Assembly (NCBI GenBank): GCA_028688415.1
Contig: JAQTYF010000001.1
Coordinates: forward strand, 144,627-208,626
DNA: 64,000 nt
Direction: 5' to 3'
From: Candidatus Moraniibacteriota bacterium
GTDB lineage: Bacteria > Patescibacteriota > Minisyncoccia > Moranbacterales > UBA1568
Position 1 is the stretch's first letter. Each line of letters starts with the position of its first letter. This document shows positions 138 through 17,610 of this stretch, in pieces. Position numbers and translations under genes: made by a program. Below the pieces are notes generated by a model that saw only the letters and a program-made list of their open reading frames with translations, searched no databases and was not told the DNA's origin.

Positions 138-1037
138 CTAAAGAAAAGTTACTCTTTCAATACAAAGACGAAAACATTTTTTCTTATGGAGGATGAACTC
201 TTTCATGTCTTTTTTTAGGAATGTAATTGCTGGGATTGTTTCTGGATTTCGGTCGAAAATGGTTACGAAGTTAGTGTGTGAATGTGCATACAGGATATCG
301 TTTTTGTCGCAGACAGTGTAAAACATTTTCTTTTTCTTTTCTATTTGAGCGCGCTTCTTTTTTGTTTCTGTAATATTTGTCACTTTTAGCGTGTTTAAAA
401 GAGTGAAAATAGATGTTGTCGCGATAGGATATTGAGGTAATGCCTCTCGTAGTATTTGTATTGTTTTTTTATTACTAATAATATAGCCAATTCGTTCAGT
501 TTCTAAAGAGAAGAACTTTGAAAATGTACGAAGGATAATGGTATTTTTTTTATGGAGAGCTTGTTGAATCAAGGATATTGGGACATAATCCCCGTATGAT
601 TCATCGATAATACAAAGGTTGCTCTTATTAACTATATGGATTAACTCATTCGAATTGAGATATAATCCGAGCTTATTGTCTGGATTGGTGATGTAGAGTA
701 TGTCGGTAGGATTAGACAGACCAGGCAGGAGAAACTTTCTAACGCCCGAACATACGTCCCAGAAAGTTTTCTGTTCTGTTGCAATTCTTGCATTTTCAGT
801 AATTAGCTGTGTAGCGTAGTGATAATTCAAATCAAGGTATGTAACATTTTTGTCTTTAAGGATTGTTCTTACAAGTGTATGTATAGCAGCATCAGCGCCA
901 TTCGTAAAAAGGATACATTCGTAAGGAATATCTTTTATACTAAAATATCGTGCCAGAGCACCTCTGATATATTGTGATACGGCATTATCCGAGTTAATGT
1001 CGACAAGCTCATTGCTGTTGAGAGATGGTAGATTCAT
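138..1037 (-). CDS. PLP-dependent aminotransferase, class I/II (HisC/CobD-like fold)
   Basis: 299-aa ORF with motif RTFSKFFSLETERIGYII matching the class I/II PLP-lysine region (xSKxxGLxGxRxGY); TNGADAAI resembles the TNGSxEAI segment. Shorter than typical (~350 aa). Confidence 0.55.
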   Translation of the reverse strand: MNLPSLNSNELVDINSDNAVSQYIRGALARYFSIKDIPYECILFTNGADAAIHTLVRTILKDKNVTYLDLNYHYATQLITENARIATEQKTFWDVCSGVRKFLLPGLSNPTDILYITNPDNKLGLYLNSNELIHIVNKSNLCIIDESYGDYVPISLIQQALHKKNTIILRTFSKFFSLETERIGYIISNKKTIQILREALPQYPIATTSIFTLLNTLKVTNITETKKKRAQIEKKKKMFYTVCDKNDILYAHSHTNFVTIFDRNPETIPAITFLKKDMKEFILHKKKCFRLCIERVTFL

Positions 1038-2068
1038 ATTGATTTATTCTGTATCATTGTATCAATCTTAATAAGATCACTAATAATTTTTTCTGCCGAT
1101 TTTGATCGACTAAAATTTGATCCAAATTGTCTTATTTCTATTCCTGGTATTTGATTATTTATCACTCTTGGGCGCATATTGAATGCACTCCATTTCTTGT
1201 AAGCAGTATCAATATCTTTCGTTTTAGCAGTTTTCAAGAGTCTTTTTGTAAACGTGGTAAAGTAGTTAATTGCATTCAATGAATTATTAGGAATTGAAAA
1301 ATTGGCGCCAATTTTTGAAGTATGTACAGAGAGAAACTTCTTTAGGAAGATATTTCGGATATTTTTCTTAAAATGCACCATCTTTCCGTTTCGAAAAAGT
1401 TTTTTGTTACCGCGGTCATATTTTTCGTATCTCGAGATGAGTGTTTGTGTTAGACGGAGTATTTTTATATAATCTTTGAATGAAAACTGGTTTGAATATG
1501 TTGGATGAAATGTGATATGAAATGAGTTGATATGATTGTAGGTCCCAATTACTTTTTCAGATATTCTATTGAAAGACCAGGTAATATCTTTATATTGTTT
1601 GATATATTTTTTATATTTTGGTAATACAATATTTCTCCCGTCTTTTTGATCTGATAAAATTGTAAGATCAGAGCATAAGTATTGGTTTGAAAATGAACTT
1701 CCTTCATCAGAGAGAGCAATCCTATAGTATCTTGCCAGTTTAGGATAGGTTTTCTTTACAAATTTTTGTAGTTTGTTCTCAACAAATAAGTGGAGCTGGT
1801 TGATTTTTTTTAGGCCATCAAATACTTCATTAATGTGGTAAGGTTTTGATATAATCTCAATAAGACACTGGCTATATTCCTCGACAATAATATGATTATG
1901 CGGGAGCTTGGTATTCATAAGAAAAAGAAGGAATTCCTGTGCGAGATTTAAATTATACACTCGATCATCTTTCTTTGAATGAGCTTGTAAGAGAAATTCT
2001 TTCTCAAAGCCAAATTCAATTGGTAGATTAAGCTTCGTTGTAGCCATTTTCAATTCATTAATGTCCAT
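1034..2068 (-). CDS. putative carboxylate-amine ligase (glutamate-cysteine ligase family 2-like)
   Basis: 344 aa; N-terminal LPIEFGFEKEF resembles the GCS2/YbdK xGxEEE start motif. 4-nt overlaps with both neighbours suggest an operon. Family assignment is tentative. Confidence 0.35.
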   Translation of the reverse strand: MDINELKMATTKLNLPIEFGFEKEFLLQAHSKKDDRVYNLNLAQEFLLFLMNTKLPHNHIIVEEYSQCLIEIISKPYHINEVFDGLKKINQLHLFVENKLQKFVKKTYPKLARYYRIALSDEGSSFSNQYLCSDLTILSDQKDGRNIVLPKYKKYIKQYKDITWSFNRISEKVIGTYNHINSFHITFHPTYSNQFSFKDYIKILRLTQTLISRYEKYDRGNKKLFRNGKMVHFKKNIRNIFLKKFLSVHTSKIGANFSIPNNSLNAINYFTTFTKRLLKTAKTKDIDTAYKKWSAFNMRPRVINNQIPGIEIRQFGSNFSRSKSAEKIISDLIKIDTMIQNKSI

Positions 2069-2867
2069 ATTTTTTTCTATATCTTATAAGTCTGCCTTCA
2101 GCTTGTTTTATTAAATTTGTATTATTTCTTATATGAGTAACTCGCCAGATCCAAAAGTCGATACCGGCAAATATAATCCAATCTTTCGCTTCTTTTCCCA
2201 GTGTAAGTGATGTTTGCCCGATTTTATTATATTCATGTATGAAGTGTTTGAGTCCAGTTAAAGTTTGAAGAGGTATTAGTCCAGACCAATAGAGTTTTGC
2301 GATATCAAAATAAGGAGAAGAATATGTTGCTTCATCGAAGTCAATCAGAAAGATTTCCCCTGAAACTTTGCGTAAATTGGAGAGGGTTATATCGCCATGC
2401 GTTAAAGAAGATGTACTTTTTGATTTTGTATAGCGACTGATACGTTTGATAAGTTGATGAATATCTATATCTATTATTTTTTTGATATCTGTGGCGTGTT
2501 GTTGTAAATGTCGAAATCTCTTTTCAATGAGTCTTCGAGGAGTCTGTTTTTTGATTTTGTGTAAACGAGAGAGCGTTTGAGCCAAAGATGTTACATCGTT
2601 TTTTGTGAAAGATCGGAGTCCTGTTCCTACAGATGTCATAATGATGTAGGGCCTTCCTTCTGTCGATCCATTTTTGATAAATTTTGGCATGTAATCAAAT
2701 CCAGAATTGAAAGCAGAAATTTCAGATTTATAGTAGGATTTTTCGGAATAAATTTTAAGGATAAGGCCATGTTTTTTGTCTTGATAGACATCGTTAGCGA
2801 AGCCACCTTTACGCACGGTGAAGCCCTCCGGTATGTGAGATATATTTGTTAGGTTATTTGCTTTCAT
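2058..2867 (-). CDS. aminoglycoside/choline-kinase-like phosphotransferase (APH family)
   Basis: HGDITLSNL catalytic loop (HGDxxxxN) and LIDFDEA (Mg-binding DxD-like) typical of APH/ChoK protein-kinase-like fold. Confidence 0.6.
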   Translation of the reverse strand: MKANNLTNISHIPEGFTVRKGGFANDVYQDKKHGLILKIYSEKSYYKSEISAFNSGFDYMPKFIKNGSTEGRPYIIMTSVGTGLRSFTKNDVTSLAQTLSRLHKIKKQTPRRLIEKRFRHLQQHATDIKKIIDIDIHQLIKRISRYTKSKSTSSLTHGDITLSNLRKVSGEIFLIDFDEATYSSPYFDIAKLYWSGLIPLQTLTGLKHFIHEYNKIGQTSLTLGKEAKDWIIFAGIDFWIWRVTHIRNNTNLIKQAEGRLIRYRKKYGH

Positions 2868-2917
2868 TGGTTTTTTATTATAGTATATACGTATTATTAT
2901 ATAATAAATACAGAATT

Positions 2918-3472
2918 ATGAATACGTCACTTTTTCATAGAATTCAGCAAGAAAAGGCTCCTGAGATCTTATTCCTCTTGGTTGAGATCAGTCAGGGTGA
3001 TTACAATAAATATGAGTATAACCATGATATTGGTGTCCTTGAAGTTGATCGTGTGCTCTATGGACCAATGTTTTACCCAATTAATTACTGCGATGTTCCA
3101 GGAACTTGGAACGATGGGGATAAAGACCCTCTTGATGCCCTTCTCTTTAGCAGCAAACCGATTGTTCCGGGCGCTATGGTTACAGGAAGAGTTATTGGTG
3201 CAATGGAGATGATCGATAATGGCGAAATTGATCATAAGATTGTTTGTGTAAATGCAAAAGATCCTCGCTTTGATCACGTGAAGAAGATTGAAGATCTGAC
3301 ACCGTATCAACGCAAAGATGTCGTAACCTTTTTTGAGCTTTACAAAATTCCTCAGACAGGTAAAGATACCACGACAGTTGGAAAGTTTATGGATTTTGAT
3401 GAGGCTGCTGTATTTATTCAGAAATGTATAGATGCATATAAAGAGAAATTCGGAAACATACAAGGTAATTAG
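2918..3472 (+). CDS. ppa: inorganic pyrophosphatase (family I)
   Basis: DYNKYEYNHDIG...YPINYCDVPGTWNDGDKDPLDALLF matches soluble PPase active-site signature (DGDPLDVLV region). Start chosen at ATG 2918, since the longer ORF overlaps the convergent kinase gene. Confidence 0.85.
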   Translation: MNTSLFHRIQQEKAPEILFLLVEISQGDYNKYEYNHDIGVLEVDRVLYGPMFYPINYCDVPGTWNDGDKDPLDALLFSSKPIVPGAMVTGRVIGAMEMIDNGEIDHKIVCVNAKDPRFDHVKKIEDLTPYQRKDVVTFFELYKIPQTGKDTTTVGKFMDFDEAAVFIQKCIDAYKEKFGNIQGN

Positions 3473-3480
3473 AATTCTTT

Positions 3481-4854
3481 ATGAACAGCGCTGACTTGCT
3501 TGATTTAGAGAAGAAGTATTGTTCTTACGGAGACACTGTTCATTACGCTGAAAATCCGAAGATTTTTTCACGATGTGAAGGATCATATCTTTTTGATGAA
3601 AAAGATATGAGATATTTTGATTTGCAAATGTGGTATTCCGCCGTTAACCTTGGTTATGCAAACAAGAATATAAACACCGCGGTGAAAAAACAGATTGATA
3701 CTTTACCCCAAATTGCATCACAATATCTTCATCAGGGAAAAATTGAACTCGCCGCACGCTTGTGTACGGAAACAGAAAAGCGATTTGGTGTGAAAGGACG
3801 GGTCCATTTTAACGTTGGTGGTGCGCAAGCTATTGAAGATGCTCTGAAACTTGTTCGAATGCGAACAAAAGCAAATGGAGTATTTGCTTTTATGGGAGGA
3901 TATCATGGGAGAACAATTGCAGCCTCCGCAATTACTTCTAGCTATCGATATCGAAGTCGTTTCGGTCACTTTGGTGATCGTGCATTTTTCGTTGAATTTC
4001 CTTACGCTTTTCGTTGTCCAGAAAAAGGTGTAGACATAACTGATTATTATATCAGCAAGTTCAAACGATTGTTTGAGACAGAATATCATGGCATTTATGA
4101 TAGCAGAGATGGCGCGTGTGAATATCGTGCATTTTTTGCTGAACCGATCCAGGGGACAGGTGGTTATATCATTCCTCCGAAAAATTTCTTTAAAGAATTA
4201 AAAAAAGTACTCGACCAATACGGCATTCTTCTTGTTGTTGATGAAATTCAGATGGGGTTTTATCGTACTGGAAAACTTTGGAGCATTGAACATTTTGACG
4301 TTGTTCCAGATATTATTGTTTTTGGTAAGGCACTTACAAATGGGTTAAATCCGCTCTCTGGGATTTGGGCAAAGGAAGGACTTATTGAACCAAGTGTATT
4401 TCCACCGGGTTCTACTCATTCAACTTTCGCTTCTAATCCTCTTGGTACTACAGCAGGATTAGCTACTCTTGAAGCTTTTGATAATTGGACTGATCGAGAG
4501 CGTGATATTGAAGGAAAGGGTAAATATTTTTTGAATAAGTTAAAACAACTGAAAGAGAAATTCCCACAGATTATTGGGGATGTAGATGGATTAGGACTTG
4601 CTCTTAGAATTGAGTTATGTGGAGATGATGGTCAGGTTCCGAGTAAAAAACGTGCTGATTTTATATTCAATGAGGGATTAAGGGGAGATCTTATATATGA
4701 CGGAAAACCAATTGGGCTTATTCTTGATATTGGTGGTTATTATAAGAATATAATAACTCTTGCACCGAACTTACTTATAACAGAAGACGAAATTGATATG
4801 GTGTCAGAGTTGCTTTCTCAATTGTTTGATAGAGTTAAAAAGAATGGGATATAA
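3481..4854 (+). CDS. class III PLP aminotransferase (acetylornithine/GABA aminotransferase family)
   Basis: VVDEIQMGFYRTGKLWSIEHFDVVPDIIVFGKALTNG matches class III signature (DEVQTGxGRTGxxxA...DIxxxxKxL) including the PLP-lysine. Confidence 0.8.
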   Translation: MNSADLLDLEKKYCSYGDTVHYAENPKIFSRCEGSYLFDEKDMRYFDLQMWYSAVNLGYANKNINTAVKKQIDTLPQIASQYLHQGKIELAARLCTETEKRFGVKGRVHFNVGGAQAIEDALKLVRMRTKANGVFAFMGGYHGRTIAASAITSSYRYRSRFGHFGDRAFFVEFPYAFRCPEKGVDITDYYISKFKRLFETEYHGIYDSRDGACEYRAFFAEPIQGTGGYIIPPKNFFKELKKVLDQYGILLVVDEIQMGFYRTGKLWSIEHFDVVPDIIVFGKALTNGLNPLSGIWAKEGLIEPSVFPPGSTHSTFASNPLGTTAGLATLEAFDNWTDRERDIEGKGKYFLNKLKQLKEKFPQIIGDVDGLGLALRIELCGDDGQVPSKKRADFIFNEGLRGDLIYDGKPIGLILDIGGYYKNIITLAPNLLITEDEIDMVSELLSQLFDRVKKNGI

Positions 4855-6151
4855 GTTAGTAGATTTTGAATCTTTCAATTCTTTAGCAAAGCAATCACGT
4901 ATTTTGCCAAAGCGATTATGTTTGCCAGGGCAAAATGTTTCTTGGCGCATTGGAAAAGAATCATACCAATTACCTTTTTCTAATAAAATAAGAGAAAGAC
5001 TTGCCTTACTTGGGATGCTCTGTAAGAAATATCATGATGCTGTTGAGGATCTTTTTTTTCATGATACAGAATTTAGGAAAAAAGTGAATATGTATCGAGA
5101 AAAATCATTTCTCGATAATTTTAATCGAGCTAAGGATTTATCATCTGGGAATATTTTTTATCGACCAGACTTGGTTATAACAGAAGATTCACAATTTAAA
5201 ATTGCTGAAATAGATGCTCTTCCTGGGGAGTTGGGTGTCCATAGTTTTTTATTGAATGCTTATGGGAGTTCTGTAAATAAGATTGTTCAATCTTTTGAAG
5301 ATGTATTGAAAAAATTTCAACTTTCACAGAGTATAGATTTTGTTATTGATTCTATAATTTCTGAAGATGAATATGTCGCTGAGTATACGTACCTTGCGAG
5401 CTGTTTGTCCAGATCAGATATTACAATGCGTATATATAATATTAACGAATATTCTGGTCCAGAAAGAGAAGGCGTCTTGGTTTATAGATTTTTTGATATG
5501 GTACGAAATAATCAGGTACAGATACACACTATTCTTGATCGAATTAAAGAAACTAAATCATATTTGTATCCACCAATAAAACATTATCTCGAGGAGAAGT
5601 TTTCATTAAGCTGTGTACACGATAAGAATGTAGAAACAATATTTTTGCGACATTTTACAAATGAAGAGCTGTCTCTTTTTAGAGATCTTCTGCCAAAAGT
5701 TCATTATCTCGATAAACAGAGTCGATTAATTTTTCCGCCGATTCAATATAATGGTAGTTCTGTAGTAAATTTTTCAGATCTGGCTTTGTTGGCGCCAAAT
5801 ATACCATATGTTCTTAAAACGAGTGCTTTCTCAGATCAATTTTCTACATCGAAAGGGGCTATTCTCTTAGAAGGGTTGTCAAAAGAACAGATAAATAGTT
5901 TACTCGAAGAACATATAAACAAGTTTGATGAACACTTTATATTGCAAGAAAAGATTACGCCACTCATTGTTGGCGTACAAGTGGTTGATTCGAATGGCAT
6001 AAACCAAGAAGTGAGGGGATTTTCGCGACTAACTCCTTTCTATTTTGTGCAAAAGAGAAAAATTGCACTTGTATCTTCTCATATAGTAATTCGAGAGAAG
6101 AATTTTGATGTTCATTTTGCTTCAGATTCTGTTGTTATACCGGCGTATTAA
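4844..6151 (+). CDS. hypothetical protein (435 aa), possibly an amide-forming ligase; unassigned
   Basis: Long ORF in frame with coding-like composition; ATG at 4844 overlaps the upstream stop (ATGGGATATAA). No motif recognised. Confidence 0.5.
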   Translation: MGYKLVDFESFNSLAKQSRILPKRLCLPGQNVSWRIGKESYQLPFSNKIRERLALLGMLCKKYHDAVEDLFFHDTEFRKKVNMYREKSFLDNFNRAKDLSSGNIFYRPDLVITEDSQFKIAEIDALPGELGVHSFLLNAYGSSVNKIVQSFEDVLKKFQLSQSIDFVIDSIISEDEYVAEYTYLASCLSRSDITMRIYNINEYSGPEREGVLVYRFFDMVRNNQVQIHTILDRIKETKSYLYPPIKHYLEEKFSLSCVHDKNVETIFLRHFTNEELSLFRDLLPKVHYLDKQSRLIFPPIQYNGSSVVNFSDLALLAPNIPYVLKTSAFSDQFSTSKGAILLEGLSKEQINSLLEEHINKFDEHFILQEKITPLIVGVQVVDSNGINQEVRGFSRLTPFYFVQKRKIALVSSHIVIREKNFDVHFASDSVVIPAY

Positions 6152-6156
6152 GAATT

Positions 6157-6828
6157 TCAAGATTTTTGAATGATTTGAAGTATTTCGTGGAAGTTTCTGA
6201 AAAGACAGGATTTTTTTTTCCTGTCGCGTAATAGTGTGAAAAGTTTCTCTTTTGCAAAAACGGTTGAACAGTGGCGAGCTCCTTCAATATCAGAAATTCC
6301 GTCGCCTATATAGATTGTATCGTTAGGATGAATAGGGATTGTTTTGATAATATGCTTGATAATTTGTGGTTTGCAATTTGCACAGACATTATTATGAATA
6401 CAAGGATATAAATCAGAAGAATCAGATAGTGGTATAAATTTTATCATTTTTTCGGACATAAATTTTATATCATTTGCGTAGATAGAAGTGAAATATATCT
6501 TGTGAATTGTGAGGAATTGTTCGATGAGTGTATTTATTCCATCGCTTATAATAAAGAGAGGGATGCCCTTGTCTTTACAAAATTGCGAGAATTCGATAAA
6601 ACCATTTTCTAGATGCAATTTACCCGCAAGATCAAAAATATCCGTAGCGTTCATTCTAATATTAGAGAATTGTTTTATAAGGCATTCTCTACTACCGATA
6701 GTGCCAGATGACCACTGCAGTTCAATATTTTTCCAGGTGTTGTCCACGCTGAACTGATTCAGTATTAAGTCTGTACTGTCTTCTTTTGCTATTGTCCCGT
6801 CAAAATCACAGAATATAGAATGTAACAT
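6157..6828 (-). CDS. HAD-superfamily phosphatase (subfamily IB, MtnX/phosphoserine-phosphatase-like)
   Basis: N-terminal FCDFDGTI (DxDGT motif I); IGDGISD near C-terminus (motif IV GDGxxD). Confidence 0.65.
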   Translation of the reverse strand: MLHSIFCDFDGTIAKEDSTDLILNQFSVDNTWKNIELQWSSGTIGSRECLIKQFSNIRMNATDIFDLAGKLHLENGFIEFSQFCKDKGIPLFIISDGINTLIEQFLTIHKIYFTSIYANDIKFMSEKMIKFIPLSDSSDLYPCIHNNVCANCKPQIIKHIIKTIPIHPNDTIYIGDGISDIEGARHCSTVFAKEKLFTLLRDRKKKSCLFRNFHEILQIIQKS

Positions 6829-7019
6829 ATACTTGTATTATATCAAAACTGCCCTAAGAAATGAAATAATAATAATTTGTACTGTATGTTAGGATTGATA
6901 TGAGTTTTTATAGTGGCATATTCTAAGGGTTGTTATGGTTCCATAGTATTTTTTGCAAAAAATGGGGATTTGGGGTAGAATATGAGTGTAAGAAGTGCCT
7001 TTTTGAGGTATTTTTTGTA

Positions 7020-7048
7020 TTGACAAATAGTAAAAAAAGTGATATAGT
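7020..7048 (+). promoter_or_regulatory. sigma70-like promoter TTGACA-17-TATAGT upstream of hss
   Basis: TTGACA at 7020-7025, 17-nt spacer, TATAGT at 7043-7048; 30 nt upstream of the 7079 start. Confidence 0.35.
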
Positions 7049-7078
7049 ATAAAATAAATTTATTTTTCGATAAACACT

Positions 7079-8506
7079 ATGATGACACAAGATTTCAAGA
7101 AAGACGTTCGATTCGATAAGAAAATGCTCATAATCGGTGGTGGATTTATCGGACAAGGAGTCTTGCCTCTCATACTGAAACATATCGATATCAAGCCAGA
7201 GCAGATATCAATCATCACTGCTGACGAACGAGGCAAAGAAACAGCTGCCTATTACGGTATACCGTTTTCTATCAATCCGATTTCCAAAGAAAATTATCGA
7301 GAAGTACTTGATCCACTTCTCTCTCCTGGAGATTTCTTGCTCAATCTCTCATCTGATATAGAGAGTACGCTTATCGTGGATTTCTGTAGCGAACGAGGGA
7401 TACTCTATCTCGATACTTGTATCGACTCATGGCTTGGAGAAAGTACCAACCCAGCACTTTCTGTTTCACAGCGATCTCTCTACAAATTGCGAGAACAAGC
7501 TATCAAGCTCAAAGAGAAATGGGGGAATACAAATGCTACTTCGGTACTCGCTCACGGAGCCAATCCTGGTATTGTATCGCACCTCGTGAAACAAGCACTT
7601 CTCAATATTGCAAAAGATGAAGGAAGAGATGTAGTCATCCCACAAACGAGAGAAGAATGGGCACGCCTCTCCCAATCACTCGGGATCCGGGCTATCCATG
7701 TCGCAGAGCGTGATACGCAGATTCCTACAGAACGAAAAAAAGTAGGTGAATTCATCAATACCTGGTCTATCGATGGATTGGTCGGTGAAGGACTCCAGCC
7801 AGCAGAGCTCGGATGGGGATCGCATGAGAAACATCTCCCTGTCGATGGGAGTAGACACACGTTTGGTGATCAGTCTGCTATCTATTTGAACAAACCAGGA
7901 GCATCAGTACGTGTCCGCACCTGGCTCCCTCTCGCTGGTCCACAGATCGGATATCTCATCACACACAATGAAGCTATTTCCCTCGCGAGTTATCTGACTC
8001 TCGGAACAGGGGAGAATCCAGAATATCGTCCGACAGTACACTATGCTTATCACCCTTGTGATGATGCGGTACTTTCGATTACAGAACTCGAAGAATCCAA
8101 TTGGAAAATTCAGGAACAAAAACGATCGATCACTGATGAAATTGTTTCGGGTATAGATGAACTCGGTGTTCTCTTGATCGGGAACAAACAGGGTGTGTAC
8201 TGGTTCGGATCACGACTCGATATCCATACTGCACGACAGCTCGCGCCATACAATTCTGCGACATCACTGCAGGTAGCTGCCGGTGTCGTAGCGGGGATGA
8301 TATGGGCGATGCGTCATCCAGAGAGTGGGATAGTCGAAGCAGAAGAAATGGATTTCAGAGAAGTGCTCGATATTGCTAGTCCATACTGGGGAGAGCTCGT
8401 CGGCGAATACAGTGATTGGGATCCGACGATAGGACGGAACACCCTTTTTCCCGAAGATATCGATACAGAAGATCCCTGGCAGTTCAAGAATTTCCGCGTA
8501 GTATAG
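7079..8506 (+). CDS. hss: homospermidine synthase (saccharopine-dehydrogenase-like NAD enzyme)
   Basis: 475 aa; N-terminal Rossmann motif MLIIGGGFIGQGVLPLILKH and overall length/organisation match bacterial homospermidine synthase. GC (~50%) clearly above neighbours. Confidence 0.65.
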   Translation: MMTQDFKKDVRFDKKMLIIGGGFIGQGVLPLILKHIDIKPEQISIITADERGKETAAYYGIPFSINPISKENYREVLDPLLSPGDFLLNLSSDIESTLIVDFCSERGILYLDTCIDSWLGESTNPALSVSQRSLYKLREQAIKLKEKWGNTNATSVLAHGANPGIVSHLVKQALLNIAKDEGRDVVIPQTREEWARLSQSLGIRAIHVAERDTQIPTERKKVGEFINTWSIDGLVGEGLQPAELGWGSHEKHLPVDGSRHTFGDQSAIYLNKPGASVRVRTWLPLAGPQIGYLITHNEAISLASYLTLGTGENPEYRPTVHYAYHPCDDAVLSITELEESNWKIQEQKRSITDEIVSGIDELGVLLIGNKQGVYWFGSRLDIHTARQLAPYNSATSLQVAAGVVAGMIWAMRHPESGIVEAEEMDFREVLDIASPYWGELVGEYSDWDPTIGRNTLFPEDIDTEDPWQFKNFRVV

Positions 8507-8534
8507 GCATTTATTGAGAATTTATAGAAAAGAA
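8484..8534. repeat. 51-bp perfect direct repeat, copy 1 (covers last 7 codons and stop of hss)
   Basis: ttcaagaatttccgcgtagtataggcatttattgagaatttatagaaaaga is identical at 8484-8534 and 10502-10552. Confidence 0.9.
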
Positions 8535-8586
8535 AAAAGAAGCAATGACGTAGCAATACTTCTTTAATTTCTTAAGTCAGTAGATA

Positions 8587-8986: not shown

Positions 8987-9106
8987 ATGAAGCAAGGCCT
9001 TTTCGGTGGTTCTGGTGGTCACGGCAATGGAAATGGTGGCTCTGGTGGCCAACGTGGTGGCGGTGGCGGTAGCACCGGTGGCGGTTCCGGGACTCGTGGC
9101 AAATAA
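8987..9106 (+). CDS. glycine-rich small peptide (39 aa), MKQGLFGGSGGHGNGNGGSGGQRGGGGGSTGGGSGTRGK
   Basis: Not in the ORF track (<60 aa). AGGAGA RBS at 8974-8979, 7 nt before ATG 8987; TAA stop at 9104-9106; lies 55 nt upstream of the M16 peptidase gene. Confidence 0.35.
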   Translation: MKQGLFGGSGGHGNGNGGSGGQRGGGGGSTGGGSGTRGK

Positions 9107-9161
9107 GTTCATCTGCCAAATCGCGTAATCTGCCAGTATGGCCTCGATCATCATTGTGTGA

Positions 9162-10460
9162 TTGAGGCCATTTTATTTTTTCGATAAATACTCTATACTT
9201 CAAACTATGCAAGTATCTCATTTCGAAAATATACTCGAAGGGAAGGGAGGGAAGTTCCTTTCCATACACTGTCCACATCTGCAGGTGTCGATTGCTTCTG
9301 TATGGTTCGAAGCTGGTTCGATATATGATCCTTTGGGCAAAGAAGGATTGGCACATTTTTTCGAACATTTGCTCTTGCAGAAAACAAAAAAAGAGCCTTC
9401 TCGAACACAGAGACTCTATACTCTCGAATCTCGTGGAATAGATTTTTACGCCTACACGAACAAAGACTCAGCTTACTATTACCATATTCAAGAACCAGAG
9501 AAAACAAAAGAAAGCCTCGGATTACTCGCGCTTGGTATTGCAGACTTCGTTTTCGATGAAACCGATATCGAGAAAGAGAGAAATGTGATTCTTTCAGAGA
9601 AAGACACGTATGATGGAAATCGGGATGAGAAAGTGTGGGATTTTCTCTTCGATGGTTTGTATCATGGAAGTGTTTTTGCTCATAATCCGTTCGGAGATGC
9701 CCATTCGATTAGTTCTATTACGAAAGAAGATATAGAAAAATTTTATCGAGAATACTATAATCTCGAGAACGCTGTGTGGGTCATTCTCTCTCCGCAAGTA
9801 TCTGGTGCAGATGAGAAAATACATCTTGAGGAAACCTTACGTCCTTTTGTTGATGCAAGCGAGAAAGTGTCAATCGATCATGATGCGAGAGAAACAATGG
9901 GAAGTGTCCATGATCAGAGGATAGTTGCCTCATCAGAAGATACATCATTTCTCGTAGCTGAAGCATTTCGTACGACGGATATTTTTGATCAAGAAAATAT
10001 TCTTCGTATCGATCTTCTCCGTTCTATCATCGCCTCTGGGTGGATTTCTTGGGCAAATAAAATACTACGTACCGAGAAAAGTCTCATCTATTGGGCACGC
10101 AGTGTTTTCAGTCAATTTCATGATAGGGGATATGTAGCTTTCCTCTTTGATGTGCAAAATTCTTCCAAGACTGAAGCCATCACCCTCTTCGACAGATTGA
10201 TAGAAGATTCGAAGGATATCGAAAAAATGAGTGAACATCTGGATGCACACAAGAACGCTTTTGCAACACGATTTCTCCGCGTGTATCATAACCCAGAAGA
10301 TCTCTTGTGGTGGTATGGATACCCTGCTTTATTTGGTATTGTCAAAGAGTCTCCCAAAGAATATTTGCATCAACTGAAACAATTGAAAGCAGAAGAGCTC
10401 GTTTCTGTCGCAGAAAAAACTTTTACGAAGGAAAAGAGGAGTGTCATAGAGATTAGTTAG
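9162..10460 (+). CDS. M16-family zinc peptidase (pitrilysin/insulinase-like), active-type subunit
   Basis: HFFEH inverted zinc-binding motif (HxxEH) near the N-terminus, plus downstream glutamate-containing region typical of M16. Alternative start at 9207 (MQVSHF). Confidence 0.75.
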   Translation: MRPFYFFDKYSILQTMQVSHFENILEGKGGKFLSIHCPHLQVSIASVWFEAGSIYDPLGKEGLAHFFEHLLLQKTKKEPSRTQRLYTLESRGIDFYAYTNKDSAYYYHIQEPEKTKESLGLLALGIADFVFDETDIEKERNVILSEKDTYDGNRDEKVWDFLFDGLYHGSVFAHNPFGDAHSISSITKEDIEKFYREYYNLENAVWVILSPQVSGADEKIHLEETLRPFVDASEKVSIDHDARETMGSVHDQRIVASSEDTSFLVAEAFRTTDIFDQENILRIDLLRSIIASGWISWANKILRTEKSLIYWARSVFSQFHDRGYVAFLFDVQNSSKTEAITLFDRLIEDSKDIEKMSEHLDAHKNAFATRFLRVYHNPEDLLWWYGYPALFGIVKESPKEYLHQLKQLKAEELVSVAEKTFTKEKRSVIEIS

Positions 10461-10501: not shown

Positions 10502-10552
10502 TTCAAGAATTTCCGCGTAGTATAGGCATTTATTGAGAATTTATAGAAAAGA
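10502..10552. repeat. 51-bp perfect direct repeat, copy 2
   Basis: Identical to 8484-8534. Confidence 0.9.
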
Positions 10553-12201: not shown

Positions 12202-12780
12202 ATGAATAATAAAGACGGATCAATTGATAATACAACTCTTTTTAAAAAATGTGATTTCTCAGATTTCAAGAAAGTACTTATTAGAATAAAACCGTCAGAA
12301 AGATTTGGAGGAATAGGCTTGTTTGCTATGAGGGATCTTGGAAAAGGGATGATGTTCGCAAAATGGGAACTTATGAATGAAGATCTTTTCTTTTCCTGGG
12401 ATGATTTTGAAAAAATTGATGAGGAATCCAAAGAAACTGTTCTGGATTTTTGTGCTGAGGCGGAAAATGGCTTCTATGCACCAACTGATATAAATTATAT
12501 ATCACTCCCTTGGCACATGAACCACTGTTGTGATGGAAACGTAGGATTTAATGAAAATGGTGATTTTATAACTATCAAAGACGTGAAAAAAGGAGAAGAA
12601 CTTTTCTATGATTATGGTTTGGTAATGTCGAATTCGAGATATAAGCTTGATTGTAAGTGCGGATCAGAAAATTGTCGAAAGATAATTACAGGTGATGATT
12701 GGAAAAATATCAATTTTCAGAAAGAAAATTATCAGTATATGTCTCCAGAAATAAAGGAGATGATAGATTCAATAAAATAA
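12202..12780 (+). CDS. SET-domain protein (putative protein-lysine methyltransferase)
   Basis: NHCCDGN (NHSCxPN motif), ELFYDYG (ELxxDY), and post-SET cysteines CKCGSENCRK. Confidence 0.7.
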   Translation: MNNKDGSIDNTTLFKKCDFSDFKKVLIRIKPSERFGGIGLFAMRDLGKGMMFAKWELMNEDLFFSWDDFEKIDEESKETVLDFCAEAENGFYAPTDINYISLPWHMNHCCDGNVGFNENGDFITIKDVKKGEELFYDYGLVMSNSRYKLDCKCGSENCRKIITGDDWKNINFQKENYQYMSPEIKEMIDSIK

Positions 12781-14575: not shown

Positions 14576-16603
14576 ATGAACATTTGTGATAATTTTGATA
14601 GGATTAGCACACTCTCTAATAGAGATTTAGTGTCGCGTGGAGCGCCGTATTTGTTCAGACTTTTTACTATTGCAATAAAAGAATTCTCAAGTTTGTTTTC
14701 TATTGCTGAAGACGATGAACAAAAATGTTTTTATTTTTATGTTAGTAAAGATAAAAACATAATATTTAAATCAAGTGCGGTTAGTTTTTCGTGCGATAGG
14801 TATATTATAAATGCAGATTCAAAACTTTTTGTTAGTGTAAAGAATGGTGCTTGGAGGACATTTAATTTTGATGATTTTAAGCACTTACTATTAATTATAA
14901 ATAAAAATTATAAAATAAATAAAGATTTTGACATTAATAATCAAATCAAAAAAGTTATCCAACAGACAAGATATTATATTTTTATAACGGAACGTGTCTT
15001 TGATACTAAAATAAACTTAAAGAGATATAGTCGAAATCATGATTTTTTTAGTGACTTACTTTTCAATTCACATAAACGGATTCTGGCTTTTTCATTGGTT
15101 GACGCTTTCGGTGTAACTTACGGACACTTAGATCACCCAACCCCATATCCGTATTCAAGTGGATTGAAACAAAGTCTATTGGGAGCTGATCCTTTTTTAT
15201 CATTTATTAGAGAGATGGATAAGATAATCAAATTGAATGATGACGAATTGAAGTCGATTATTAAAAAACCTGATGTCTTACAGAAGAAATTTGATGTATC
15301 ATCTAATGGAATTAGTCTGATTTTAGTGCCTAGATATTTCTTCGTGGAAGATGAACGCCTGCACCTAGAAGAAATCTCTTCAATCCTTAATTCTACAATT
15401 AAAAATCTTTACGGACGCGAGATTGATTATGATAAAAGTAAGAATTACTTGCTATTTATTCCTGAGATTGAGCGTGGTTTTGCATTATCGAGCAAGTCAC
15501 TTTTATTTCAGGAATGTAAAATATTATCAGAGAGTCTTTTTGGTATTTCCTCAAGTTCGGGAAGAAGCATGATTGTGCCTGTAGTTCTAGAAAATAATAA
15601 GAATAGTTTTCTATTCCTAAAAACATCATGGCCTGATATCATAAAGACAGCCTACAATAGAGGGTTGAGGATTAGTGTAGTTGAATGGTATTTGGTATGT
15701 TACGAAATCTTCAGCTCATTTTCGTCAAATGAGTTTGAATTTTTCTCGGAAGAAATCTTTAGTCCGATTTTAAAAGATCATGATGTAACAAAATATCTAA
15801 CTTTTATTTCAAGAAAACTTTTAATGTTAGAAAGAGATAAAAATGAATTCGTTTTGCCGCTAATAGGGTTGGTTGTTCCTAATCACGCATATCCTTTTGA
15901 TGAAACTCCTCTGGTTCATTTTATGAAGCTGAGTCAAAATCCAGAGCTATTCTTGAGATGTCTAGTAGACTGTATAACGAAAGCAATTATATCGCAGCTT
16001 CTCAGTAAGGGTGTTTATCATAGTTCACATCTTCAGAACTGTTGTATAATTTTCAAAAAAAATGGCAAAGACATCTTGCCAATAAAAGCCCTTTTAAGAG
16101 ATGGAGACATACGGGTTTGCGAAGATTATTCCTCATTACTTTCTATTGAGGAAATTAAGACAATTAGTAATTTGAGGAAAAAAAGAAATAAAATTTATCA
16201 TGAAAAAAAGTTTTATAAGCATCTTTTTCATAACATAATTAATGAAAACTTTGGTAATATTGAGCAGTGTTTATTGATAGATAACCAATTTTCATCAGAG
16301 TTTTTTTGGCGATTAGTCCGTTCTAGTTTTGAAGATGCAATCAAGAGGAATGTAAAAGTTTTGAAAACAAGGAATGAATATAGAAAAATTCACGGAGTTA
16401 TAGTAAAAAATTTTACGGAAACAGTTTTTAAGGGAAGCGGTTACTCAGTGAATTTTTTTCGAATGAGTTTTTTTGGAGTAAAGGAAAACTTTATTAAAGT
16501 ACACAATCCTTTTTTAGGAAGAAAATCTTTTGAATTATACACAGCCAGGAGTCAGAGTATTACGGATACAAAAACCAATGAAGAAGAGTCACTTCGTCTT
16601 TAA
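14576..16603 (+). CDS. hypothetical large protein (675 aa), very AT-rich
   Basis: Uninterrupted ORF at ~30% GC. C-terminal third contains SHLQN...LRDGDIRV, faintly reminiscent of IucA/IucC-type ligase motifs (unconfirmed). Confidence 0.5.
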   Translation: MNICDNFDRISTLSNRDLVSRGAPYLFRLFTIAIKEFSSLFSIAEDDEQKCFYFYVSKDKNIIFKSSAVSFSCDRYIINADSKLFVSVKNGAWRTFNFDDFKHLLLIINKNYKINKDFDINNQIKKVIQQTRYYIFITERVFDTKINLKRYSRNHDFFSDLLFNSHKRILAFSLVDAFGVTYGHLDHPTPYPYSSGLKQSLLGADPFLSFIREMDKIIKLNDDELKSIIKKPDVLQKKFDVSSNGISLILVPRYFFVEDERLHLEEISSILNSTIKNLYGREIDYDKSKNYLLFIPEIERGFALSSKSLLFQECKILSESLFGISSSSGRSMIVPVVLENNKNSFLFLKTSWPDIIKTAYNRGLRISVVEWYLVCYEIFSSFSSNEFEFFSEEIFSPILKDHDVTKYLTFISRKLLMLERDKNEFVLPLIGLVVPNHAYPFDETPLVHFMKLSQNPELFLRCLVDCITKAIISQLLSKGVYHSSHLQNCCIIFKKNGKDILPIKALLRDGDIRVCEDYSSLLSIEEIKTISNLRKKRNKIYHEKKFYKHLFHNIINENFGNIEQCLLIDNQFSSEFFWRLVRSSFEDAIKRNVKVLKTRNEYRKIHGVIVKNFTETVFKGSGYSVNFFRMSFFGVKENFIKVHNPFLGRKSFELYTARSQSITDTKTNEEESLRL

Positions 16604-16710: not shown

Positions 16711-17610
16711 ATGACCGAGCTAGAATCAATTAAAAAAATACGGTTTGTCCTTACGGATTTTTGTAATTATCAATGTAGATTTTGTCATAATGAAGGAACT
16801 CCAACAAAGAACACACGGTTTTTGGATAAGGAGAGTATTTTTTCGTTAACGAGTGTGGCTAAAGATTTAGGTATTAAAAAAATTACTCTAACAGGAGGCG
16901 AACCATTACTTCACCCAGAAATTGTAGCTATTGTAGACGGTATCAATGCTATATATCCAGAAGCTATCTTAGGGATGACAACTAATGGGATGTTATTTGA
17001 TAAAAATAAATTTGCTACGATTATTACTAATCTTAGTCGGTTACGTTTAAATTTTCAAAGTTTAGATGAAAAAGTTTTAAAATATATTTGTGGTAATGGC
17101 GCTAATATTAGTAAAGCGCTTTTGATGATTGATGACGTGAGGAAACTGAATCCTGATTTAAATATTTGTTTGAATTTTGTTTTAACAACTTATAACAAAG
17201 AATCACTTTCTGATGTTATAAAATTTGCAATTAAAAATAATCTAGATGTAAAATTGTTAGAGTATATGGCTCTCAATAAAGATCTTTATGTTGAAGTCAA
17301 ATATGCTAAAGATATATTAGAGTCTCTTCGACCTATTAAAAAGTATAAAGACTATCAGGACGATGATATTTATATGTTTACAGGATCTTCAAGTCGGATA
17401 CGTTTATGCTATTCATTTTGCAATGGTTTTAGATGTAAATCTTGTCGTGAATGTGGTGAAATTAGATTGGCACCAGGGTTAACCCTTAAGCACTGTTTTG
17501 ATGAGAGAATTGAAGAGGTTGATATTAGAAAAGAGTTGCTAGAACAGAATCTGGAATCAATAAAAAAGAAGATCATTTCAATTGATCAAATTAAGGGAAG
17601 ATTGCTCTGA
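16711..17610 (+). CDS. radical SAM enzyme, MoaA-like (GTP 3',8-cyclase family)
   Basis: CNYQCRFC (CX3CX2C) in TDFCNYQCRFC context like MoaA TDRCNLRCxYC; ITLTGGEPLL; MTTNGML; C-terminal CRECGEIRLAPGLTLKHC = CX2CX13C auxiliary-cluster motif characteristic of MoaA. Confidence 0.75.
   Translation: MTELESIKKIRFVLTDFCNYQCRFCHNEGTPTKNTRFLDKESIFSLTSVAKDLGIKKITLTGGEPLLHPEIVAIVDGINAIYPEAILGMTTNGMLFDKNKFATIITNLSRLRLNFQSLDEKVLKYICGNGANISKALLMIDDVRKLNPDLNICLNFVLTTYNKESLSDVIKFAIKNNLDVKLLEYMALNKDLYVEVKYAKDILESLRPIKKYKDYQDDDIYMFTGSSSRIRLCYSFCNGFRCKSCRECGEIRLAPGLTLKHCFDERIEEVDIRKELLEQNLESIKKKIISIDQIKGRLL

Follow-up and report, generated by a model that had tools for sequence, protein, structure and literature searches.

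A strain-variable gene cassette with two orphan ligase families in a Moranbacteria genome, probably encoding a small amide-linked metabolite

The window analysed here is a stretch of 64,000 nucleotides from the genome of a Candidatus Moraniibacteriota bacterium, a member of the Moranbacteria within the candidate phyla radiation (CPR)/Patescibacteria. It maps to contig JAQVTP010000002.1 of assembly GCA_028699965.1, and the 344-aa protein described below is identical to one that NCBI lists for a Candidatus Moranbacteria metagenome-assembled genome. Positions 138 to 6828 of this window hold a seven-gene cassette, which we read, with a probability of roughly 0.6, as a self-contained accessory biosynthetic cassette for a small amide-linked metabolite, either a "pseudo-tripeptide" or a peptidyl amino-alcohol. 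An original prediction, made from the sequence of positions 138 to 8506, had proposed a dedicated amine/amide small-molecule locus and had named, as the outcome that would speak against it, assignment of the genes to housekeeping roles with no conserved co-localisation. Instead, co-localisation of the cassette genes was found to be conserved and none of the enzymes attains a housekeeping equivalog cut-off, those for hisC, cobD, argD and gabT included. The neighbouring gene for homospermidine synthase (hss), which the original prediction had joined to the cassette, is a resident of the surrounding genome and not part of it. The map of open reading frames (ORFs) places eight genes across 138-8506, namely the seven cassette genes and hss:

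138-1037, minus strand: HisC/CobD-family pyridoxal phosphate (PLP) enzyme, 299 aa, with a short N-terminus (PF00155)
1034-2068, minus strand: orphan carboxylate-amine ligase, 344 aa, with a glutamate-cysteine ligase (GCL)/YbdK/glutamine-synthetase fold (predicted structure)
2058-2867, minus strand: APH-fold small-molecule kinase, 269 aa (PF01636)
2868-2917: divergent intergenic region of 50 bp that separates the operons of the kinase and the pyrophosphatase (gene coordinates)
2918-3472, plus strand: family-I inorganic pyrophosphatase, 184 aa (PF00719; start codon according to the NCBI and Logan gene calls)
3481-4854, plus strand: class-III (omega-amine) PLP enzyme, 457 aa (PF00202)
4844-6151, plus strand: orphan ATP-grasp ligase, 435 aa, with a eukaryotic glutathione-synthetase fold (predicted structure)
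6157-6828, minus strand: HAD-IB (MtnX/PHOSPHO1-like) small-molecule phosphatase, 223 aa (TIGR01489, PF06888)
6951-6993: right edge of an 11.8-kb segment absent from the sister genome L016 (blastn, Logan contig breaks)
7079-8506, plus strand: homospermidine synthase (hss), a neighbour outside the cassette (match to 2ph5)

The coordinates of the seven ORFs described previously and the overlaps within their minus-strand trio were confirmed: the genes at 138-1037, 1034-2068 and 2058-2867 overlap by 4 and 11 nt, the latter shared by the kinase and the 344-aa ligase genes. On the plus strand, the class-III and 435-aa ligase genes likewise overlap by 11 nt. The pyrophosphatase gene, which runs from its conserved ATG over 2918-3472(+), had been missed as the eighth gene of the stretch; it is among the most faithfully linked genes of the cassette. 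A promoter scan yielded only weak promoter-like matches in the intergenic region at 2868-2917, and a scan of the sequence for tRNA and Rfam elements found none. The block had been described as AT-rich apart from a GC-rich hss, which agrees with a GC content of about 34% for the cassette and 46% for hss (40% for the remaining window). The cassette probably extends beyond the start of the window to include a radical SAM/SPASM gene (L009 12002-13126).

The cassette genes were found to be co-located in about six divergent small-genome lineages, in which gene orders vary and the flanks differ in each. The contigs of these relatives are labelled L0xx, L009 being the contig of the window genome itself, and their arrangements are as follows:

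L002/L003 (ligase 63-64% identical): same order as in the window, with the HAD phosphatase, 435-family ligase, class-III enzyme and pyrophosphatase, and divergently the APH kinase, 344-family ligase and class-I/II enzyme
L006-L008 (45%): the same seven genes, with a TauD-fold gene after them
L017-L019 (42%): HAD phosphatase, 433-aa ligase, class-III enzyme, APH kinase, 342-aa ligase, class-I/II enzyme and TauD-fold gene, without a family-I pyrophosphatase
L011 (40%, 435-aa family): rearranged, with the HAD phosphatase, class-III enzyme and ligase on one strand and the pyrophosphatase, APH kinase, ligase and class-I/II enzyme on the other
L004/L005: both ligases, kinase, class-I/II enzyme, pyrophosphatase and TauD-fold gene, without the class-III and HAD genes
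L020: APH kinase, and divergently the pyrophosphatase directly followed by the 435-family gene

Because the flanks differ in every lineage while these genes stay together, the core of the cassette consists of the two ligases, the kinase, the HisC/CobD-like enzyme and a pyrophosphatase activity, to which the class-III enzyme and the HAD phosphatase are frequent accessories. In comparisons of L002, L006, L011 and L017 with the window, identity is 33-66% for the ligases, the kinase, the class-I/II PLP enzyme and the HAD phosphatase. It is far higher for the class-III enzyme (72-88%), for the pyrophosphatase (64-89%) and for the radical-SAM enzyme (81%), a difference that might stem from constraint on particular families or from a recent, partial exchange. 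The family-I pyrophosphatase is linked in five lineages and in three different arrangements. In the sixth, L017-L019, a DHH/DHHA2 family-II manganese pyrophosphatase is carried instead (NF003877, 350 bits against a cut-off of 283), and this non-orthologous replacement is the strongest single argument tying the hydrolysis of pyrophosphate (PPi) to the pathway. The linkage of the cassette thus survives the rearrangement in L011, the changes of flank and the exchange of one pyrophosphatase family for another.

The slot that follows the class-I/II PLP gene is always occupied by either a VioC/GntD/clavaminate-synthase-like hydroxylase or a radical SAM/SPASM enzyme. The former type is best matched by GntD, VioC and clavaminate synthase, all beta-hydroxylases of free amino acids. 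The TauD-fold hydroxylase stands beside the cassette in three lineages, where it matches the GntD model with 104-114 bits and the VioC model with 73-82 bits, both far under the cut-offs. The two lineages without it, those of the window genome and of L002/L003, carry the same radical-SAM/SPASM gene in this position, in the window genome beyond the window start.

Several of these loci show peculiarities of their own. In L011, a divergent PurD-like ATP-grasp protein (6209-7513(-), 116 bits against a cut-off of 288) is encoded divergently from the cassette HAD gene and may be a third ligase recruited there. In L020, a 271-aa ORF after the ligase gene was tested as the kinase and ruled out; the L020 kinase lies upstream on the other strand. 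In L004/L005 (ENA ERZ26695388; a 755-kb contig, GC 27-28%), in-frame TGA codons occur in a number of genes, among them those of the cassette kinase, PLP enzyme and hydroxylase. Since these codons align with tryptophans of the orthologues (IDFWIW, TFWD, WHTED), UGA is apparently read as tryptophan in this small-genome organism, in the manner of genetic code 4. On the 755-kb contig L004, the 435-family gene is split into ORFs of 162 aa and 266 aa (7162-8582), and it is intact in L005 (4193-5614), a second contig from the same sample; the split reflects either an error of assembly or the decay of the gene to a pseudogene in one of the strains.

Both ligases belong to families that are absent from the Pfam and NCBIfam catalogues, yet clear ligase folds are predicted for them. 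Neither the 344-aa nor the 435-aa protein gave a single sequence match in Pfam, NCBIfam or the PDB, whether searched as single sequences or as profiles. For the 344-aa family (7 members), nothing was retrieved from Pfam or NCBIfam even at E 10, its profile recovered no chain of a GCL, YbdK or glutamine synthetase from the PDB, and a match to the GCS2/GCL superfamily (PF04107, GshA, YbdK) was not obtained. The 435-aa family (10 members) remained blank against Pfam at E 10 and, as a profile, against the PDB, and did not match the eukaryotic glutathione synthetase models PF03917 and PF03199. Both families are small: 7 homologues of the 344-aa protein and 11 of the 435-aa protein were found in 5.8e9 proteins, the 344-aa profile retrieved only 18 proteins from 1.84e9 representatives, none of them bearing a Pfam family, and only one locus was found among 185,579 species genomes.

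Structure prediction was more informative. The AlphaFold (AF2) models rest on small alignments of the families themselves and are confident, with a pLDDT of 83.7 for the 344-aa protein and of 84.7 for the 435-aa protein, the latter with a pTM of 0.87. In Foldseek searches, the 344-aa model retrieved yeast glutamate-cysteine ligase (3ig5, E 5e-6, TMq 0.64), also GshA and glutamine synthetases, and matched the YbdK structures 1tt4 and 1r8g with TM 0.47-0.52. The original prediction of a GCS2-like ligase is consequently supported at the level of the predicted fold only, which is of the glutamine synthetase/GCL type; sequence searches give nothing. The 435-aa protein, previously left unassigned, is modelled with the ATP-grasp fold of eukaryotic glutathione synthetases: its top structural matches are the human, soybean, yeast and trypanosome (homo)glutathione synthetases (8fbz, 2hgs, 3kal and 1m0w, E 1e-13 to 2e-16, TM 0.6-0.66), followed by YgiC/YjfC/glutathionylspermidine-synthase-like proteins at about 1e-10 and D-Ala-D-Ala ligases at about 1e-4. 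Invariant acidic and basic residues are retained in the family alignments of both. For the 344-aa family, an alignment of 18 sequences revealed mainly charged invariant positions (E22, E24, E71, R238, D287, R299, R301 and E311), with H184 and R313 mostly conserved, a pattern consistent with a candidate Mg-ATP ligase site. This putative Mg/ATP-binding constellation, ExE ... E ... H ... ExR, may correspond to the ligands of E. coli GshA.

The remaining enzymes could be placed in families using Pfam gathering scores and the equivalog cut-offs of NCBIfam/TIGRFAM, and the class I/II PLP, APH, class III and HAD assignments of the original prediction agree with PF00155, PF01636, PF00202 and HAD-IB/PF06888, respectively. 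The 299-aa protein has the class I/II aminotransferase fold (PF00155, 84.8 bits against a cut-off of 19.7) and stays far below the HisC (TIGR01141, 120.5 against 276.55 bits) and CobD equivalogs (TIGR01140, 85.7 against 290.55 bits). Its PLP motifs TNPDN, IDE[SA]Y and FSKFF, with their asparagine, aspartate and PLP lysine, respectively, and a C-terminal R are invariant across six orthologues, and an orthologue was found in every lineage whose contig covers that part of the locus. Characterised members of the HisC/CobD family act on phospho-esters (histidinol-P, Thr-P, Ser-P, dihydroxyacetone phosphate), and the cassette enzyme could be a transaminase or decarboxylase of such a substrate. The 269-aa kinase (PF01636, 43.3 against 23.2 bits) shows weak Pfam matches to fructosamine, choline and ecdysteroid kinases and carries the motifs HGDxxxxN and IDFD intact. 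The pyrophosphatase is a clear member of family I (PF00719, 157 against 23.5 bits) below the NCBIfam equivalogs (135.5 against 246 bits), and its D-x-D-x-x-D signature reads DKDPLD.

The 457-aa class-III protein scores 235.8 bits with PF00202 and lies under every NCBIfam equivalog cut-off (best PRK05769, 276.9 against 552 bits; argD, 199 against 410; GABA aminotransferase, 214.5 against 506.65). With an archaeal protein (7vno) and an Ala/Ser racemase (9wqz) as its closest relatives in the PDB, it could be a transaminase, a racemase or a lyase. The 223-aa phosphatase falls into the MtnX-like subfamily (TIGR01489, 101.7 against 81.55 bits), below the MtnX equivalog (85.8 against 303.2 bits), scores 47.9 bits with PF06888 (PHOSPHO1 type) and displays DxDGT and GDGxxD motifs. 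Catalytic motifs are thus kept in the kinase, the HAD phosphatase, the pyrophosphatase and both PLP enzymes.

Comparison of close relatives revealed that the cassette is variable between strains. On both sides of a gap, L016 and the window genome share 93-97% nucleotide identity (blastn); at the gap, L016 lacks 11.77 kb running from beyond the window start to position ~6993. Besides the seven genes and the radical-SAM gene, this segment includes an aspartoacylase-like gene, a Ham1-methyltransferase fusion and an ORF of 213 aa. The independent Logan contigs L010 and L001 end at window positions 6976 and 6951, i.e., at the edge of the segment, which would fit the coexistence of both alleles in the sampled population. 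Assemblies of SRR22315507 break again between the radical-SAM and aspartoacylase-like genes and leave an 8.2-kb Logan contig with exactly the seven genes and the radical-SAM gene, a hint that this eight-gene unit is the variable module. In the more distant relative L002, the cassette is also found near the same GT4-20x-GT4 genes. Whether the 11.77-kb difference arose by gain here or by loss in the relatives, the cassette is dispensable and hss is resident.

hss itself shows full-length homology to characterised homospermidine synthases. It matches the Legionella enzyme 2ph5 over residues 8-474 (E 7e-159), followed by 4plp/6s65 at about 1e-141, and has more than 8000 homologues, the named ones being 60-72% identical. 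Its connection to the cassette, in contrast, did not hold. hss adjoins the cassette in the window genome only, in the other lineages no hss was found closer than 10 kb to the cassette, and the cassette neighbourhoods of L002, L004/5, L006, L011 and L017 are without one. It possesses its own promoter-like site at 7020-7048 (11 of 12 positions matched, the best of the region), and in two relatives without the cassette, L014 (hss 84% identical) and L016 (99%), it occupies the same backbone, which reads GT4, 203-aa, GT4, 467-aa, 203-aa, hss. A recent insertion of the more GC-rich hss beside an old cassette was considered and ruled out, as hss belongs to the backbone shared by L014 and L016 and it is the cassette segment that varies.

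Some further observations concern hss and its surroundings. The gene is 72% identical to enzymes of Rhodocyclaceae (Betaproteobacteria), richer in GC than the genome and syntenic in related CPR, which points to a transfer of older date involving Proteobacteria and this CPR lineage. A SpeD/AdoMetDC-derived decarboxylase gene beside hss has been described in a CPR genome (PMC10407285); no SpeD-like gene stands beside hss here, where the surrounding small ORFs are without a Pfam match. A 51-bp direct repeat (8483-8533 and 10502-10552) comprises the last 24 nt of hss and downstream sequence and recurs after an M16 peptidase gene. The 2-kb segment between the repeats contains a 39-aa glycine-rich ORF (8988-9107(+), MKQGLFGGSGGHGNGNGGSGGQRGGGGGSTGGGSGTRGK), a strong terminator (9138-9171) and the M16 gene (9207-10460), and in L014, hss runs straight into the sequence that follows the second repeat. 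The segment looks like a second small indel and is possibly a module of a glycine-rich peptide and a protease.

From the observed gene content, folds, catalytic motifs, linkage and strain-level presence or absence, we infer the following substrates, order of steps and product. A hydroxylated amino acid or amine would be supplied by the adjacent VioC/GntD-like Fe/2-oxoglutarate hydroxylase in oxic lineages, and in the window genome perhaps by the radical-SAM enzyme or by salvage. The APH-fold kinase would phosphorylate its hydroxyl group, and the HisC/CobD-family PLP enzyme would decarboxylate or transaminate the phospho-ester to a phosphorylated amine building block. The GCL-fold ligase and subsequently the glutathione-synthetase-fold ATP-grasp ligase would then form two successive amide bonds, following the logic of gamma-Glu-Cys and then glutathione. 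The class-III PLP enzyme might supply or modify one of the partners, such as an omega-amino or D-amino acid, or alternatively act as a lyase; the HAD-IB phosphatase would strip the phosphate handle, and the pyrophosphatase would pull a PPi-forming step. A pantetheine/CoA-like route was ruled out as the main hypothesis, as a PLP enzyme cannot decarboxylate an N-acylated cysteine.

Parts of this scheme have counterparts in known systems. In the cobamide branch, the threonine kinase PduX, the L-Thr-O-3-P decarboxylase CobD and the amide-forming CbiB act in turn, and the cassette would follow the same order as in the aminopropanol-phosphate branch, namely phosphorylation of a beta-hydroxy amino acid by a kinase, HisC/CobD-family PLP decarboxylation and amide joining. 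Its kinase is, however, of the APH and not the GHMP type, its PLP enzyme reaches only 85.7 of the 290.6 bits set for CobD, and corrinoid genes are missing. The trio of beta-hydroxylase, class-I/II-fold PLP enzyme and APH-type kinase is also found in viomycin and guanitoxin biosynthesis (VioC/VioD, GntD/GntC/GntI), and the cassette PLP enzyme and kinase show weak GntC and GntI matches, far under the cut-offs; in contrast to these pathways, the cassette lacks a nonribosomal peptide synthetase, a methyltransferase and an N-oxygenase, and the window genome lacks the hydroxylase. For the HS:2 capsule of C. jejuni, ethanolamine-P and serinol-P from the PLP enzymes Cj1436 and Cj1437 are joined to a carboxylate by Cj1438C, an ATP-dependent amidoligase, and then lose their phosphate to the phosphatase Cj1435 (PMC12409886). 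The logic of making a phospho-amine, ligating and dephosphorylating it is shared, judged by the described enzyme roles, whereas the cassette has no conserved glycosyltransferase or sugar-nucleotide genes and instead two ligases of other folds, a kinase and a pyrophosphatase. A literature search found no earlier description of the cassette or of either ligase family. The families, their combination and the host group are new; the enzyme logic is known already.

Several points weigh against this pathway. The class-III and HAD genes are missing from L004/L005, and apparently also from L020, and are consequently not essential to the core chemistry. Some enzymes of the class-III fold are phospho-lyases that work alongside APH-fold kinases in catabolic routes (PMC8154272). 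The specificity assignments rest wholly on family-level or fold-level resemblance, Foldseek backing for the fold of the 344-aa protein is moderate (E 5e-6, TM 0.5-0.64), and no transporter, regulator or carrier protein is found among the cassette genes. Moreover, neither of the two ligase folds nor the kinase is known to release PPi, and therefore the tightly linked pyrophosphatase is left unexplained. A PPi-releasing (adenylating) mechanism of at least one of the ligases, which would be new for its fold, would, if present, explain the obligatory pyrophosphatase. A bolder form of the proposal incorporates this idea and is, in our estimate, possible though on the unlikely side: a new metabolite specific to Patescibacteria/CPR, i.e., a glutathione-logic pseudo-tripeptide or a cofactor-like amide on a phospho-amino-alcohol, made by a dedicated and horizontally mobile pathway with two deep-branching, uncatalogued relatives of the glutamate-cysteine ligases and the eukaryotic-type glutathione synthetases.

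Among other explanations, the folds of the two ligases bring to mind a low-molecular-weight thiol of the glutathione type, gamma-Glu-Cys-X, for which the other genes would supply X (an amino alcohol or beta-alanine). Glutathione biosynthesis (GshA/GCL/YbdK and the eukaryotic-type synthetase) likewise employs two ATP-dependent carboxylate-amine ligases encoded together; the predicted folds are exactly this pair, with GCL and (homo)glutathione synthetases as top structural matches, and acidic and basic residues that are candidates for Mg-ATP binding are conserved in the cassette ligases too. Against this, sequence similarity to any GCL or glutathione synthetase family is undetectable even by profile, nothing points to specificity for cysteine or glutamate, and the cassette, which adds at least five linked enzymes, is dispensable between close strains, which would be unusual for a main redox buffer. 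We regard such a thiol as clearly unlikely. The polyamine conjugate once suggested by the adjacent hss would have the two ligases decorate homospermidine. Glutathionylspermidine and trypanothione synthetases and the phevamine hsv operon provide ATP-grasp ligases that act on polyamines; the 435-aa model resembles 3n6x, YgiC/YjfC and trypanothione synthetase 2vps as well, and an AdoMet_dc-family gene lies about 9 kb from the cassette of L002. However, the distribution of hss, its own promoter-like site and the lack of a SpeD-like neighbour speak against this idea, conservation of the cassette does not extend to the polyamine gene, and the amidase and amidinotransferase of those systems are missing. 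Because hss is adjacent only here and is resident without the cassette, the polyamine half of the original proposal of a "polyamine or amino-alcohol conjugate" is left without specific support and appears decidedly improbable, while an amino-alcohol conjugate is still the best reading.

A catabolic or salvage module would pair the APH kinase with a class-III phospho-lyase for hydroxylysine or ethanolamine-P and use the ligases for gamma-glutamylation in a Puu-like manner. Hydroxylysine kinase and the phospho-lyases of 5-phosphohydroxylysine and ethanolamine-phosphate offer the precedent of an APH-fold kinase beside a class-III-fold PLP enzyme (PMC8154272), and the matches of the class-III protein include PbfA (210 bits), ETNPPL (6tor, E 2e-39) and PuuE. 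Yet two lineages do without the class-III gene and still have the kinase, the PLP enzyme and both ligases, a conserved amidohydrolase or dehydrogenase is missing from the cassette, and two additional ATP-consuming ligases together with a hydroxylase suit synthesis better than degradation, so that this proposal fares no better than the polyamine conjugate. Still less probable, to the point of being hard to credit, is the modification of a ribosomal peptide or protein by tagging or cross-linking ligases (PafA-, RimK- or graspetide-like) with the SPASM enzyme as maturase. A SPASM radical-SAM gene is indeed adjacent here and in L002, and enzymes of the GS/GCL and ATP-grasp folds include protein ligases; but the very short intergenic spaces hold no conserved small ORF, the kinase, both PLP enzymes and the HAD-IB phosphatase are of types that act on small molecules, and in three lineages the radical-SAM slot is taken by a hydroxylase of the free-amino-acid type. 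Finally, the best NCBIfam names (hisC, acetylornithine/GABA aminotransferase and inorganic pyrophosphatase) would allow for housekeeping genes (hisC, argD/gabT, ppa, serB-like) that stand in a row merely by chance, together with genes for two hypothetical proteins. With all scores far under the equivalog cut-offs, the linkage kept through rearrangement, change of flanks and pyrophosphatase replacement, and the whole block missing from the sister genome L016, such chance clustering is effectively refuted.

Two loci elsewhere in the window may be mentioned. A 675-aa protein (14576-16603(+)), which is followed by a radical-SAM protein (16711-17610(+)), has as its sole match a weak FhuF-type domain (18.8 bits, under the cut-off). 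FhuF-type domains also form the C-terminus of siderophore synthetases of the IucA/IucC type, and if the weak match is real, the protein could be a divergent PPi-releasing amide synthetase. At 12202-12780(+), a SET-domain protein (PF00856, 35 bits) is encoded upstream of a histidine kinase, and L014 has two tandem copies in this place.

With genomes smaller than 1 Mb, CPR/Patescibacteria are considered minimal in their biosynthesis. A conserved pathway of seven to eight genes on a strain-variable island, at a cost of at least 3 ATP per product, suggests a specialised metabolite, perhaps for host interaction, stress protection or antagonism. The natural inference that a neighbouring polyamine gene belongs to the pathway is corrected by the comparison of relatives. 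Hypotheses on the chemistry of the pathway can be drawn from the invariant link to a pyrophosphatase of family I or II, from the alternation of an O2-dependent hydroxylase and a radical-SAM enzyme in one and the same slot and from the optional class-III and HAD genes, and the two enzyme families without sequence relatives in Pfam, NCBIfam or the PDB are direct biochemical targets. If true, a CPR-specific amide metabolite would represent a dedicated pathway in organisms known for almost none.

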